IMG/VR virus record: IMGVR_UViG_3300035698_022074
Location: 1 to 64,000 of that record
Direction: 5' to 3' (one strand)
Length of the DNA: 64,000 nucleotides
DNA from: a virus
A program made the position numbers and the translations under genes. The notes under the pieces are model-generated. The model was not told the DNA's origin. It made no database searches and worked only from the letters and a program-made list of their open reading frames with translations. Each line of letters starts with the position of its first letter. Within the stretch, counting starts at the first letter, position 1. Positions 15,573-24,417 of the stretch are shown piece by piece.

Positions 15573-16031
15573 ATGAGAAAGAAGATCATCGGATTTACAT
15601 GCGGATCTTTCGATCTGCTGCATGCGGGCCATGCTTTAATGCTTGAAGAGTGCAAATCTGTTTGTGACTTCTTGATCGTTGGTCTCCAATCTGATCCTTC
15701 TGTTGACAGGATCAGTAAAAACAAGCCTGTTCAGTCTGTTGAAGAGAGAGCAATAATGCTAAATGCGATCTCATACGTTGATCAAGTAGTTTTCTATAAT
15801 ACAGAAGCTGATCTTATCAACGTTTTAGTTGACATTAAGAAAGAAGCCGACCATAATGACAACGACGTGATTCGAATACTAGGTGCTGATTGGCACAACA
15901 AAAACTTTACCGGCAAATCTCTCAACATCAGAACATTTTTTAATTCACGAAACCACAAATATTCATCCTCTTCGATTAGAGAAAGAGTTTGGGCTGCAGA
16001 AAACAAAAAGCGAGGCATTGAAAATGGGTAA
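15573..16031 (+). CDS. cytidylyltransferase (HxGH nucleotidyltransferase, TagD/RfaE-domain-II-like)
   Basis: GFTCGSFDLLHAGH motif. 152 aa. RBS gagg. Confidence 0.65.
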   Translation: MRKKIIGFTCGSFDLLHAGHALMLEECKSVCDFLIVGLQSDPSVDRISKNKPVQSVEERAIMLNAISYVDQVVFYNTEADLINVLVDIKKEADHNDNDVIRILGADWHNKNFTGKSLNIRTFFNSRNHKYSSSSIRERVWAAENKKRGIENG

Positions 16032-16530
16032 TATCATCAGGTTTCCGGGAAGAGATGAAAGGAAAGAAAGGAATCACGGCAAGAAAGCAAAAGAAACAGA
16101 CAAACCAGTTTTGACGCCATCAGAAGTAGAAGAAAACAACATGCTTTCCTTTGGTGCAAATCAAAGGAAAGATTTCATCAATGTTAGCTTGTCTGACCTT
16201 AATGACGCTGACATGGTAGTTGAAGAATTGGAGATTAAAATGAGTGACGGATCAGAGTGGTCAATTGCAAGCGAAGTGTTTGCAGATATTTATGGACGAA
16301 GAATTGCAGGTATGAAAAAATATAGACCCGAAGAAGAAGTCGAAGTTTACATTGATGCCTTCTCTAAGTTTATGGAGGACAACGACATCAGAAATGATTT
16401 TGTCTCTAAGCTGTCGTGGAGTGACGTATCAGATTATGCCGTTGTAACTAAGCATCCCAAAAATGCAAACTATGATAAAGACTGGATGATTTCAAAAAAC
16501 AAGAATTTTGTGCCTGTTAAAGATGCTTAG
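16024..16530 (+). CDS. hypothetical acidic protein (168 aa)
   Basis: ATG overlaps the upstream stop (ATGGGTAA). TAG stop followed by CGA TAA. The ORF-track start at 15883 is rejected. Confidence 0.5.
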   Translation: MGNIIRFPGRDERKERNHGKKAKETDKPVLTPSEVEENNMLSFGANQRKDFINVSLSDLNDADMVVEELEIKMSDGSEWSIASEVFADIYGRRIAGMKKYRPEEEVEVYIDAFSKFMEDNDIRNDFVSKLSWSDVSDYAVVTKHPKNANYDKDWMISKNKNFVPVKDA

Positions 16531-16562
16531 CGATAATTATTCATTATACAAAGTTGAAAAGC

Positions 16563-21106: not shown

Positions 21107-22424
21107 TTGGACTTTTAAGGAACTAAACGAATGGGACGAAAAGATTGTAGCAATGGCGAAGTCTTATGGTCTAGATTGGCACCCTATCGTATACGAAATC
21201 TGTGATTACTACGAAATGATCGGCCACATGTCGTATCACGGTATGCCTAGCCATTATCACCACTGGAGTTTTGGAAAAAGCTTTGAGAGGACCCACCAGA
21301 TGTATAATTTGGGTATGTCTGGTCTACCTTATGAGCTAATTATTAACTCAAACCCGAGTATTGCGTATCTAATGCGCGAAAACCCAATGTATTTACAGAT
21401 CTTGATTATGGCTCACTGTGTTGGACATAGTGACTTCTTCAAGAATAACTCAACATTTGGCCATACAAAGCCAGATAGTATAATTCCAAAGATGAGGTCT
21501 GCAAAGAAGAGGATCCAAAAATACATTGAAGACCCAAGCATCGGAATTGAGAAAGTTGAAAAGATTCTCGATGCATGTCATGCAATTAGCTTCAATGTAG
21601 AGCGATATGGTAGAAAGAGAGTTCCACACAAAGAAAAGAAAGAAATGTGGATCAAGAGACTTAAGTCAAGTAAGTCAAATGCACCATTCAGGGTAGACGT
21701 CAATAAGGTTCCTATCGAGCCTGACTATGACATTCTTGGCTTTATTGTAGAGCATGGTGTGCACTTAGACGAATGGGAAAGAGACATCATTGAAATTGTC
21801 AGAGAAGAGTCTGTCTACTTCATGCCACAGATTAAAACAAAGATCATGAATGAAGGTTGGGCTAGTTTTTGGCACTACAAGATGATGAATGAACTCGACC
21901 TACCTGACAAATACCACATCCCATTTTTAAAGTCACACAACCAAGTTGTAAGGCCTTTTGGTGATAGGATTAATCCATATCACATGGGATTCTATATTTT
22001 CAAGAGACTAGAAGAAGAGCAAGGGCTTGACGCTTGCTTCTTAGCTAGAGAAATTCACAATGATGAATCAGCAATTAGAGAATTCATCGACGAAAAAGCA
22101 TGTAGAGATTTAGGTCTATTTTCTTTCTCAATGAAGGAAACAAAGACAGAGCAAATCTTTACAATCGACGACGTTCCAGATGAACCAGGGTGGAAGCAAA
22201 TTCAAAAAGATCTTATTAAGACAGTCGGCATCAACAATATGCCTATCATTTACGTTGAAAGTGCTAATAGAGGAGGTGAACTAATTCTTCGTCATGAACA
22301 TGATGGAAGAGATCTCGACTTAAAATATGCAGAGACAGTCGTTAAGCACATCGCAGACCTTTGGGAGGACTCAGTTAAGTTAATGACGATAATTGCGGAA
22401 GATGGTGAAGATTTTGAAATCTAA
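21099..22424 (+). CDS. spoVR: SpoVR/YcgB family protein
   Basis: RBS ggagg. ATG overlaps the yeaH stop (ATGTCTGA). 441 aa with conserved SpoVR-like regions (WSFGKSFE…, NEGWASFWHYKMM). Confidence 0.75.
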   Translation: MSDWTFKELNEWDEKIVAMAKSYGLDWHPIVYEICDYYEMIGHMSYHGMPSHYHHWSFGKSFERTHQMYNLGMSGLPYELIINSNPSIAYLMRENPMYLQILIMAHCVGHSDFFKNNSTFGHTKPDSIIPKMRSAKKRIQKYIEDPSIGIEKVEKILDACHAISFNVERYGRKRVPHKEKKEMWIKRLKSSKSNAPFRVDVNKVPIEPDYDILGFIVEHGVHLDEWERDIIEIVREESVYFMPQIKTKIMNEGWASFWHYKMMNELDLPDKYHIPFLKSHNQVVRPFGDRINPYHMGFYIFKRLEEEQGLDACFLAREIHNDESAIREFIDEKACRDLGLFSFSMKETKTEQIFTIDDVPDEPGWKQIQKDLIKTVGINNMPIIYVESANRGGELILRHEHDGRDLDLKYAETVVKHIADLWEDSVKLMTIIAEDGEDFEI

Positions 22425-22479
22425 ATGTGAAACACATATAGAACTACTTTGTAAGATTAAATTGAAATGGAGAAAGTAA

Positions 22480-24417
22480 ATGACATCAAATCGTAAAGAC
22501 TATCTTGCTCTTATTAAGAAGCACAAGAAGAAAGTAAAGGCCAAGAAGTGGTCAGGAACCTTCATTGAATATCTTGAGCTTGTTGAAGAGAATCCACGCA
22601 TCGCAAAGCTATCGCATAGCAGAGTGTATGATTCTATTATGTCTCAGGGCGTTCAAACGCTAGATGACTCAAATGATAGATTTAGAAAGCTCTTCGAAGA
22701 GGACAAGTTAAAGACTTACGACTTCTTCCAGAAGGACTTTTATGGCGCCGAGAGAGTAGTTTCTCGCTTAATGAAGTTCTTGAAGGCTGCCTCGCTAAAG
22801 GGAGAAGAGAGTCGACAGATTCTCTTGCTTATGGGACCAGTTGGTGCGGGTAAGTCAGCGCTAACAGAACATGTCAAGAAGGCACTTGAAGCTGCCGAGC
22901 CTTATTACTACCTCAAGGGATGCCCAATCCGAGAGGAGCCTTTGCACCTTGTACCTAGATCTTTACGATCAGAATTCAAGGAGATTTTGGGTGCTCATAT
23001 CGAAGGAGACTTGTGCCCAATCTGTAGAATGAAGCTAATCGAAGAGTACGATGGTGACTACGAAAAGTTTGAGGTAGTTGAGGGATCCTTCTCTGCTCGA
23101 GGCCGAAAGGGTGTCGGTGTAGTTCCTCCAACTGATCCTAACACGCAGGACGTGAGCATCTTGATTGGCTCGGAAGACATTTCTAAGCTAGATCTCTATT
23201 CAGATGACGACCCTCGAATCTTGTCTCTAAATGGTGCTTTCAATGTAGGAAACAGAGGTCTGGTTGAATTCGTAGAGATTTTTAAGAATGAAGTTGAGTT
23301 TCTCCACCCAGCAATTACAGTTACCCAGGAGAAGCATTCTCCAGCACCTGGTAAGCACCCCATGATTTATCATGATGTGTTTATCATCTCACACTGTAAC
23401 GAAGCAGAGTGGAACAAGTTTAAGTCAGATCACTTAAACGAAGCTGTGATGGACCGAATCGTCAAGATCAACGTTCCATATGTGCTTGAGCTCGATGAAG
23501 AGATCAAGATTTACAAGAAGCGAATGGCAGAGTCTGACTTCGACGTACACATTGCACCTCATACTTTGAGAATTGCAAGTATGTTTTCGATTCTAACGCG
23601 ACTTGCACCAAGTAACAAGTGTGATCTAATGACTAAGCTTAAGCTTTACAATGGCGAAGAAGTCATTGAGGCTGGGCATGTCAAGAAGGTTGACATTAAG
23701 GATCTTCGTGCAGAAGCTAACAATGAGGGTATGACTGGTATTTCGACTAGATTTATCATGAAGGCGATCGATGACGCTTTGACAACTTCTGACAAAGATG
23801 TTATCACACCAATCTCCGTAATTGATGCCATGATTCGAAAAGTCAAGGAGCAAATCACAAACGAGGAATCCAAGGAACGTTACCTAAGTCTCCTTCAGAA
23901 GACAATTCGTGAAGAGTACCTAAGTGTGCTTGAAAAGGAAATCTCGAAGGCTTTCATCACAGCATTTGAAGAGAACGCCGCGAATATCTTTGAGTTGTAT
24001 CTTGACAGCGCTGAGGCATATACAAACAACATTATGCTCAAGGATAGCATTACGAAAGAAGAGCGCTACCCAGATGAAGAGTTCATGCAATCTATCGAAG
24101 AGCAACTCGGTATCACAGGAAGCTCTCGTGATGGATTCAGGCAGGATGTAACTTCCTACATGTTCCGCACGGTAAGAAAGGGTGGAACGGTTGATTACAC
24201 GTCTTACGCTCCTCTCAAGGAAGCTATCGAGTCTTACATGATGTCTAATGTCCGCAAGATGGCACGTGTTGTGACTAAGGCACGTACCAGAGACGACGAG
24301 CAGAAGGGCAAGTACAATGAGATGGTGAAGACACTCATTGAAGAGTACGGCTACAATGAAGTAAGTGCCGAAGAGGTGCTGACCTACGCAGCAAACAACC
24401 TCTGGCGTGATTCGTAA
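22480..24417 (+). CDS. prkA: PrkA/YeaG-family serine protein kinase (AAA+ N-domain)
   Basis: 645 aa. Walker A LLMGPVGAGKSAL. The length matches YeaG (644 aa). Third member of the YeaH-SpoVR-PrkA stress module. Confidence 0.8.
   Translation: MTSNRKDYLALIKKHKKKVKAKKWSGTFIEYLELVEENPRIAKLSHSRVYDSIMSQGVQTLDDSNDRFRKLFEEDKLKTYDFFQKDFYGAERVVSRLMKFLKAASLKGEESRQILLLMGPVGAGKSALTEHVKKALEAAEPYYYLKGCPIREEPLHLVPRSLRSEFKEILGAHIEGDLCPICRMKLIEEYDGDYEKFEVVEGSFSARGRKGVGVVPPTDPNTQDVSILIGSEDISKLDLYSDDDPRILSLNGAFNVGNRGLVEFVEIFKNEVEFLHPAITVTQEKHSPAPGKHPMIYHDVFIISHCNEAEWNKFKSDHLNEAVMDRIVKINVPYVLELDEEIKIYKKRMAESDFDVHIAPHTLRIASMFSILTRLAPSNKCDLMTKLKLYNGEEVIEAGHVKKVDIKDLRAEANNEGMTGISTRFIMKAIDDALTTSDKDVITPISVIDAMIRKVKEQITNEESKERYLSLLQKTIREEYLSVLEKEISKAFITAFEENAANIFELYLDSAEAYTNNIMLKDSITKEERYPDEEFMQSIEEQLGITGSSRDGFRQDVTSYMFRTVRKGGTVDYTSYAPLKEAIESYMMSNVRKMARVVTKARTRDDEQKGKYNEMVKTLIEEYGYNEVSAEEVLTYAANNLWRDS

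Follow-up and report, generated by a model that had tools for sequence, protein, structure and literature searches.

The 64,000 nucleotides (nt) analyzed here, positions 1 to 64,000 of the IMG/VR virus record IMGVR_UViG_3300035698_022074 and referred to below as the window, contain nine same-strand genes between positions 15573 and 24417, the last three of which encode homologs of the bacterial proteins YeaH/YhbH, SpoVR/YcgB and PrkA/YeaG. This trio had been named in an initial annotation of the sequence, and Pfam and NCBIfam searches substantiate all three identities. The first gene (19934–21106, plus strand) encodes a DUF444 protein of 390 amino acids (aa) with a vWA domain (PF04285, E = 1e-113, 381 bits; TIGR02877 YhbH, 414 bits), for which the best NCBIfam model carries the name 'sporulation protein YhbH'. 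It is followed by a SpoVR/YcgB homolog of 441 aa (21099–22424, plus strand; PF04293, E = 4e-121, 405 bits; SpoVR_C, 36 bits) and by a PrkA/YeaG homolog of 645 aa (22480–24417, plus strand), which combines an AAA+ ATPase (PF08298, E = 6e-137, 456.8 bits) with the PrkA C-terminal kinase-like domain (PF06798, E = 7e-76, 255.7 bits; gathering cut-offs of 25 for both).

The coordinates of the YeaH and SpoVR genes were refined by reading the gene junctions, which places the YeaH start at the ATG at 19934. The YeaH stop and the SpoVR start overlap by 8 nt within ATGTCTGA, and a GGAGG lies 8 nt 5′ of the SpoVR ATG. SpoVR and PrkA are separated by a spacer of 55 nt and PrkA possesses its own GGAG, so that the overlapping start and stop codons first described for the whole trio apply to YeaH/SpoVR but not to SpoVR/PrkA. 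An alignment of 95 phage and bacterial PrkA sequences contains 65 columns that are at least 98% conserved, among them the Walker A lysine, and the Walker A motif GPVGAGKS (residues 119–126) is kept throughout these 95 sequences; the function of Bacillus subtilis PrkA requires its Walker A lysine, K108 (PMC9512850). The metal ion-dependent adhesion site (MIDAS) of YeaH, MDvSGS..GGT..DG (DxSxS..T..D), is likewise kept across 91 sequences, and SpoVR keeps the family-invariant HWS.GK, GLPYE, H..GH..FF and PQ..TK..NEG. Judged by these residues and junctions, the phage appears to keep three catalytically intact proteins as one tight operon. In a search of the PDB, window PrkA matched entry 9xip, 'Serine protein kinase', with E = 7e-104 (this PrkA-family structure of 692 aa is present with 30 chains in the three entries 9xip, 9xiq and 9xir) and showed weak similarity to the AAA+ part of Lon, and YeaH and SpoVR found no match to any solved structure in that database.

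Between positions 15000 and 26000, promoter-like sites were not in excess (28 compared to 24.7 ± 4.8 in shuffled sequences), and the terminator-like sites, about two standard deviations above the shuffles (12 compared to 6.4 ± 2.6), include none at the boundaries of the trio genes. The hexamer ATATAG is over-represented between genes (8 of its 15 occurrences, intergenic DNA making up 21% of the window) and often lies 8–76 nt 5′ of a start codon (examples are found at 1326, 2274, 22436, 28194, 30614 and 33387); it may be a promoter element of the phage. One copy is located 44 nt upstream of PrkA. Since just 5 of 73 relatives carry the hexamer in the SpoVR-PrkA spacer, we do not count it among the features of the trio operon.

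The window is assigned, from its gene content, to an uncultured large marine myovirus-type tailed phage (Caudoviricetes). Its baseplate-wedge protein shares 33% identity, along 98% of the sequence, with the wedge proteins of Flavobacterium phage vB_FspM_immuto, Microcystis phage Mel-JY01 and an uncultured phage of 484 kb. The helicase is similar to helicases of jumbo and Vi1-like phages, and PhoH and a glycosyltransferase island are encoded as well. Coding is nearly all on one strand and the G+C content is uniform at near 0.40. ARAGORN detects 39 tRNA genes and a transfer-messenger RNA (tmRNA) with the tag ANNNSHFQTALAA, and Rfam adds 3 tRNAs to give a total of about 42; these genes are located at 444–11939, 14858–15096, 24523–24692, 25904–25980 and 30901–31268 and include an amber-suppressor tRNA (anticodon CTA) at 14939–15015. 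Amber recoding as a source of corrupted gene calls was considered and rejected, since TAG terminates 8 of 59 genes and the genetic code is thus not wholly reassigned. No capsid or terminase gene is found within this window.

When the region was compared by megablast with 50,697 phage records, no DNA-level match was obtained, and relatives among phage records are apparent at the protein level only, with at most 33% identity. In IMG/VR, at least 147 contigs of up to 293 kb carry a PrkA that is 60–65% identical to that of the window, related viral loci lie on contigs reaching 318 kb, and the protein collection holds thousands of PrkA-type sequences of this clade on contigs of up to 298 kb. Together with the full-length match of the baseplate wedge to myophages, the more than 130 related IMG/VR loci bear out the phage origin that was initially assumed. 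The region is also present with identical sequence in two independent assemblies. Both of these source assemblies break off inside yeaH at nearly the same point, and they differ from the window at 14740–15570 by an insertion or deletion of about 81–84 nt in a small tRNA cluster, which suggests either strain variation or an assembly break.

The trio is a near-core operon of this clade of large marine viruses. In all 80 related loci found via PrkA the genes lie on one strand in the order YeaH-SpoVR-PrkA, the count being 78–80 of 80 because genes are missing where a contig end cuts the locus. Since this sample is conditioned on PrkA, we resampled the clade via PhoH and the helicase. The PhoH sample comprises 51 IMG/VR loci in which the relative of the window PhoH is full-length and the upstream DNA extends for at least 9 kb; PrkA is present in 50 of them and the complete trio in 48. 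In the two loci with PrkA and an incomplete trio, PrkA is located far upstream and the remaining genes fall beyond the flank, leaving one locus without the trio. All five helicase-anchored loci carry the trio as well, these five being nearly the same genome. The packing is even tighter in the relatives, with a median gap of 12 nt between SpoVR and PrkA and a YeaH/SpoVR overlap of 1–8 nt. Pairwise ratios of nonsynonymous to synonymous substitution rates (dN/dS) are 0.038 for YeaH, 0.048 for SpoVR and 0.034 for PrkA, and such values of 0.03–0.05 show that the trio is not decaying. Conserved, tightly packed and under purifying selection, the three genes behave as one functional unit as far as their sequences can tell.

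A bacterial source of the region, be it contamination, chimeric assembly or the flank of a prophage, has to be weighed, as has a trio that is a decaying passenger, since close homologs occur in three metagenome-assembled genomes (MAGs) of GTDB, assigned to Luteolibacter, Halobacteriovorax and Bdellovibrionota, and in a protein of a 'Candidatus Thorarchaeota' MAG. A further point of this kind is the record of Enterobacter phage LAU1 (MN688132.1, 30.8 kb), which opens with yeaG and yeaH at 1–3308, beside tail genes and without spoVR; this pair looks like host chromosome at the end of a prophage-derived record and not like a phage trio. However, the MAG contigs show the viral gene order and viral neighbors, so that these copies are probably mis-binned phage contigs, and two of the three bins being Bdellovibrionota could even be a hint to the host. 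The nearly one-stranded coding and uniform composition of the window, its baseplate wedge, tRNA array and tmRNA, the identical sequence from two independent assemblies and the PhoH-anchored loci further speak against a bacterial source, and the dN/dS values exclude decay. Contamination, the alternative that the initial annotation itself had raised, is hence refuted, and we regard this explanation as hardly credible in any of its forms.

To place the trio phylogenetically, cellular relatives were searched in one genome per GTDB species. The nearest are the Clostridia isolates Clostridium uliginosum DSM 12992, Defluviitalea phaphyphila and Tepidibacter formicigenes, with identities to the window proteins of 56–57% for PrkA, 43–48% for YhbH and 43–47% for SpoVR; across Clostridia isolates with the trio the values span 54–57%, 40–48% and 40–47%. 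In a neighbor-joining tree of PrkA all 200 bootstraps recover a monophyletic viral clade, and 196 of the 200 join it to Firmicutes PrkA, away from E. coli YeaG, the Ralstonia phage RsoM2USA, a planctomycete and the Thermus phages. The trio would thus be of Firmicutes (Clostridia) type with a cyclically permuted gene order, an assignment that is provisional because bacterial sampling is thin. The phylogeny that had been proposed for identifying the bacterial donor yields the grouping with Firmicutes, with the donor itself still provisional at this small number of references.

What the trio does in its bacterial owners provides the frame for its possible function in the phage. The genes for PrkA, YeaH and SpoVR are mutual best partners with a cofitness of r > 0.7 in six bacterial species (bioRxiv 10.1101/072470), YeaG is described as required for surviving sustained nitrogen starvation (PMC4664914), and B. 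subtilis PrkA is an ATP-dependent protease that is regulated by Ser/Thr phosphorylation (PMC9512850). The trio is conserved across most bacterial phyla and acts as one unit in fitness screens, yet its biochemical role is still disputed.

We lean, by a modest degree, towards the reading that the phage trio is an autonomous unit which modifies the nutrient-limitation control of the host and keeps a starved host productive; a phage takeover of host starvation physiology, as suggested at the outset, is plausible. During infection the three proteins would act jointly as a self-contained, ATP-driven unit, with PrkA and its kinase-like C-terminal domain as the AAA+ motor. YeaH may be its vWA/MIDAS partner or adaptor, by analogy to MoxR-type ATPases, which function with vWA partners (RavA-ViaA, CbbQ-CbbO, NorQ-NorD). 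SpoVR might be the third subunit or an effector. Driven by ATP, the unit would modify regulatory or metabolic proteins of the host by remodeling, degrading or phosphorylating them. The nutrient-limitation program would thereby be overridden, and a starved, slow-growing marine host could stay productive throughout the long infection of a big phage.

Several points weigh against this reading. The biochemistry of PrkA is disputed between a kinase in E. coli and an ATP-dependent protease in B. subtilis (PMC9512850), and the phenotypes of trio mutants vary between bacteria (bioRxiv 10.1101/072470), because of which 'starvation' may be too narrow a term. A phage copy could replace, supplement or antagonize the copy of the host. 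The likeness between PrkA-YeaH and other AAA+/vWA pairs is a functional analogy with MoxR-vWA systems, and the PrkA tree contains just 11 references from outside the clade (nine cellular, three of these from isolates; three from phages, representing other acquisitions). Finally, in the Thermus phages phiYS40 and Lalka27b the vWA-SpoVR-PrkA genes are located between the portal/minor-head genes and the large terminase gene, a position that hints at a possible virion-linked role.

This last arrangement, with the trio inside a head/packaging module, also is an argument for a role of the trio in phage morphogenesis or proteostasis. In such a role, an AAA+ remodeling or protease machine with a vWA adaptor would cooperate with a GroEL-like chaperonin and act, in the course of assembly, on proteins of the phage or the host. 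A candidate for the latter is encoded directly in the window: the gene at 26022–27410 (plus strand) specifies a chaperonin (GroEL)-like protein of 462 aa (phrog_5725 'chaperonin groEL', E = 1.2e-12; no match in a Pfam search), and such a gene is the usual downstream neighbor of PrkA, being present in 46 of the 80 related loci. The GroEL-like protein may be functionally tied to the trio, and the protease activity of B. subtilis PrkA (PMC9512850) as well as the weak Lon similarity of window PrkA fit a role in proteostasis. The other neighbors of the trio in the window and its relatives are, however, non-structural (tRNAs, TilS, an RNase H-like protein, the helicase and PhoH), structural genes being absent there. 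In addition, the phage proteins retain all invariant residues of the bacterial families, from which a retained bacterial function is expected. We rate a role in morphogenesis or proteostasis as unlikely.

A more far-reaching reading would have large marine phages of a cosmopolitan clade depend on the operon as core machinery that is essential to them and that imposes or blocks dormancy or starvation in nutrient-limited hosts. This is speculative and in our estimate improbable. Were it true, the virus would need the trio in a defined time window, and the clade would thereby open a first tractable way to find out the biochemical function of one of the most widespread uncharacterized three-protein modules of bacteria. 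In a bolder variant still, the trio would have been exapted for a process peculiar to the phage, for example assembly or the formation of a replication compartment.

The initial annotation had gone further and joined the trio with the genes upstream of it and with a phosphatase into one stress-signaling module. The individual gene calls behind this proposal stand. The first and the fourth of the nine genes belong to the cytidylyltransferase-like family (PF01467): CT1 (15573–16031, plus strand, 152 aa) is a nucleotidyltransferase (PF01467, E = 9e-16; phrog_7878, E = 1e-35), and CT2 (17920–18804, plus strand, 294 aa) is a fusion to a mannose-6-phosphate-isomerase-like cupin (PF01467, E = 2e-9; PF01050, E = 1.6e-10; Cupin_2, E = 6e-9). 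A NUDIX hydrolase of 184 aa follows at 18817–19371 (plus strand; PF00293, E = 5e-11). The phosphatase at 11993–12628 (plus strand) is a compact PP2C Ser/Thr phosphatase of 211 aa (PF00481, 31 bits, cut-off 20.3) with the canonical metal-binding motifs ED, DGMGGH, GDTR, SDG and SSDN; it is shorter than a typical Stp1, and its match to the Stp1/IreP model (E = 2.7e-16, 60 bits) stays below the cut-off of 230 bits.

For a single module speak the shared strand, the tight spacing and the stop/start overlaps at several junctions. PP2C could in principle feed into PrkA, an input that is conceivable because the protease activity of B. subtilis PrkA is regulated by Ser/Thr phosphorylation. The presence of the NUDIX hydrolase fits as well in so far as some NUDIX enzymes degrade alarmones. 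We counted how often these genes occur within 10 kb of the trio in 80–83 related loci, and the proposed association fails at this point: while the trio is complete in about 79 of 80 loci, an HD/SAH gene (the HD protein of the window is described below) is represented in 7 of 83, and of 80 loci none has PP2C, 4 have CT1, 27 have CT2-cupin and 26 have NUDIX. Families of sugar- or alcohol-phosphate activation are moreover the ones to which the CT and cupin domains belong, and their genes travel with phosphomannomutase (PMM). The nine-gene span thus consists of a core of three genes that is conserved and, next to it, accessory genes that vary, and one integrated stress-signaling module is a most doubtful proposition.

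The accessory genes fit better with another theme. The best-scoring models for CT1 are RfaE domain II and glycerol-3-phosphate cytidylyltransferase, yet below their cut-offs, and its PDB matches are ethanolamine-phosphate and glycerol-3-phosphate cytidylyltransferases. CT2 matches the 'putative cytidylyltransferase' 5x9q (E = 1.6e-11), and its cupin corresponds to the C-terminal isomerase domain of the bifunctional mannose-1-phosphate guanylyltransferase/mannose-6-phosphate isomerase. CT1 and the N-terminal half of CT2 thus fall into the group of heptose-1-phosphate, glycerol-3-phosphate and ethanolamine-phosphate nucleotidyltransferases. Where CT2-cupin lies upstream of YeaH in related loci, it is often accompanied by PMM and NUDIX, and the arrangement PMM-helicase-CT2cupin-NUDIX-YeaH recurs in relatives; the PMM gene of the window is located at about 13900–14737. 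Since CT2 is fused to a cupin and travels with PMM, it better fits sugar-nucleotide metabolism. An island of about 12 kb within 35787–50397 encodes glycosyltransferases, two nucleotide-sugar epimerases and a UDP-glucose dehydrogenase, which together with PMM suggests phage-directed glycan synthesis. CT1, CT2-cupin, NUDIX and PMM probably make or police nucleotide-activated sugars for this island. NUDIX, with weak and mixed equivalog matches and a weak similarity to Ap4A hydrolases in the PDB, is possibly a housekeeping hydrolase. NAD salvage of the NadM-Nudix type was rejected as an explanation of the CT and NUDIX genes, the NMNAT models scoring far below those of RfaE/TagD type.

Two further genes belong to the span. 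The protein of 168 aa encoded at 16024–16530 (plus strand), whose start overlaps the CT1 stop (ATGGGTAA), is of unknown function and found no match in Pfam and NCBIfam. The open reading frame (ORF) listed as 15883–16530 most likely starts at 16024, and the source contigs carry a gene call at the same place. The gene at 19368–19865 (plus strand), immediately before YeaH, encodes a small hydrophobic protein of 165 aa with the motif HEAIH (HExxH), a putative membrane metalloprotease (phrog_15610 'protease', E = 1.5e-13; no Pfam match), that is found in 2 of 80 related loci.

The remaining gene of the span, at 16563–17918 (plus strand), encodes a two-domain protein of 451 aa, the N-terminus of which had been recognized as a (p)ppGpp-hydrolase-type HD domain. 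This assignment stands, limited to residues 1–170: they match the hydrolase domains of Rel/SpoT and of small alarmone hydrolases (SAHs), show the Mesh1/SpoT hydrolase fold, and carry the catalytic and metal-binding motifs HP, HD..ED and D..HN (ITHP, LHDAIED, CDMLHN), which align with Rel/SpoT and are kept in homologs (phrog_990, E = 2e-25). The placement of the gene directly upstream of the trio, in contrast, does not hold, since it lies 2 kb upstream with CT2-cupin, NUDIX and the small HExxH membrane protein in between. Residues 195–451 are predicted to fold as a separate domain (predicted TM-score of 0.79), which is uncharacterized and contains an HExxH motif. An exhaustive search for this domain of 257 aa yielded 40 representatives, mostly stand-alone proteins of 240–270 aa, and H154, E155, H158, H180, E186, E192 and E193 as well as downstream arginine residues are invariant in 24 members, so that HExxH is accompanied by candidates for the third ligand of a zincin-type site further along the chain. 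The domain belongs to no Pfam family, with sub-threshold matches only, several of them to HExxH peptidase families; it has no fold match in the PDB, matches just two uncharacterized phage proteins in BFVD, and shows no recognizable similarity to zincins in fold or profile. We hence consider it a candidate metal-dependent hydrolase and do not call it a peptidase.

Phage-encoded SAHs are known (PMC9712102, PMC12846349). The HD protein has the motifs HP, HD, ED and D..HN in common with human MESH1, bacterial SAHs and PaSpo of Salmonella phage SSU5, but these are single-domain proteins of about 180–220 aa, whereas the window protein is extended by the additional domain. The fusion of SAH and HExxH domain occurs in four or five clusters among 5.8 billion proteins and represents a new architecture among phage alarmone hydrolases. 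In the seven of 83 related loci that have an SAH-like ORF near the trio, this ORF is a stand-alone one, with open frames of 193–307 codons, most of them about 190–240.

The likely task of the HD protein is to clear (p)ppGpp, (p)ppApp or similar 3′-pyrophosphates. Since PaSpo neutralizes toxSAS toxins (PMC9712102), a serious rival to an off-switch of the stringent response is a counter-defense enzyme that acts on the products of toxSAS, such as (p)ppApp or pyrophosphorylated tRNA made by CapRel/FaRel-type systems. This role would agree with the (p)ppApp hydrolase 7smg being the structural match with the highest sequence identity (31%), with the heavy investment of the phage in tRNA genes, and with the patchy occurrence of the HD/SAH gene, which is typical of arms-race genes. 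On the other hand, substrate specificity is not readable from sequence, and SAHs are often promiscuous. A defense or anti-defense signature was also rejected for the region, as the PADLOC matches are marginal (E > 1e-4). We give counter-defense distinctly less than an even chance.

Two further genes of the window deserve mention. A shortened class-I release-factor gene at 13209–13887 apparently needs a +1 frameshift: its ORF runs from the ATG at 13209 (MSTVIIEIRAGEGGDDAKDL...) into an in-frame TAG at 13320 within GGAGG-TCA-TTT-TAG-C, and a +1 shift on TTTT links it to the frame 13321–13887, which carries GGQ. This resembles the logic of the prfB frameshift, but at UAG rather than UGA. The codon-recognition tripeptide is PPN, and not PxT (RF1) or SPF (RF2). 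No relatives in which conservation of the frameshift could be followed were found in IMG/VR. At 3979–6666 lies a gene for an 895-aa homolog of the eukaryotic Major Vault Protein (MVP; MVP_shoulder, E = 1.4e-26; Vault_3), which matches residues 466–790 of rat and human MVP with E = 2e-15 and has a local G+C content of 0.48 compared to 0.40 for the window. Relatives with 38–40% identity are present in the huge phages LR756500, LR756501 and LR756503, and viral MVPs have previously been reported from gut phages (bioRxiv 10.1101/2023.11.10.566534).

When compared to known systems, the trio is closest to the clostridial prkA-yhbH-spoVR operon, with which it shares the three families, the contiguity of the genes and protein lengths of about 640, 390 and 430–456 aa. 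The two differ in gene order, as the usual bacterial order is prkA-yeaH-spoVR and the co-located, compact genes are arranged as yeaH-spoVR-prkA throughout the viral clade. They also differ in setting, since the clostridial copies belong to spore-formers and are part of sporulation regulons, while the phage clade is abundant in marine metagenomes, where spore-forming hosts would be unlikely. In a survey of marine viromes, spoVR came out as the viral 'sporulation' gene of highest abundance and was interpreted as serving to control sporulation (PMC8940887). This label of an auxiliary sporulation gene is probably misleading, as what the viruses carry is the trio and not a spore function. The module of E. 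coli, YeaG-YeaH and YcgB, which is regulated by nitrogen starvation and RpoS, comprises the same three families, whose members act together by cofitness, and shares the Walker A and MIDAS motifs, but its proteins are longer (YeaH, 427 aa), its genes are split into two operons, and identity is low at 29% between YeaG and window PrkA and 31% between the YeaH proteins.

On the mechanistic level, the MoxR-type systems RavA-ViaA, CbbQ-CbbO and NorQ-NorD offer a parallel, as they likewise feature an AAA+ protein adjoining a co-inherited vWA/MIDAS protein. Unlike these, window PrkA belongs to an AAA subfamily of its own and carries a kinase-like C-terminal domain, and SpoVR, the third obligatory partner of the trio, has no counterpart in MoxR-vWA systems.

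Complete trios are also present in other phages, namely the Thermus phages phiYS40, TMA and Lalka, the Ralstonia jumbo phage RsoM2USA and the huge phages LR756511 and LR745206, with just 30–33% identity to the window. The Thermus phages share the vWA-SpoVR-PrkA order with the clade of the window, whereas the trio of RsoM2USA has the bacterial order and is of proteobacterial type (57% identical to YeaG), and LR756511 and LR745206 carry it in the bacterial order as well. In the description of the RsoM2USA genome SpoVR and PrkA are listed, SpoVR under replication, but no function is suggested for the three genes (PMC8504454). The trio goes unmentioned in the huge-phage paper, and the PHROGs families that exist for all three proteins are labeled as unknown function. 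The phage-borne trio is therefore present in databases and essentially undescribed as a unit. The trio of the window clade was acquired separately from the copies of the Thermus phages, RsoM2USA and some huge phages, and big phages have thus gained these genes on at least three or four separate occasions. Given this repeated acquisition, its near-universality in the marine clade and the purifying selection acting on it, we argue that the module benefits infection directly. The trio is no new kind of system; its value is that of a natural system for probing what these three proteins do.

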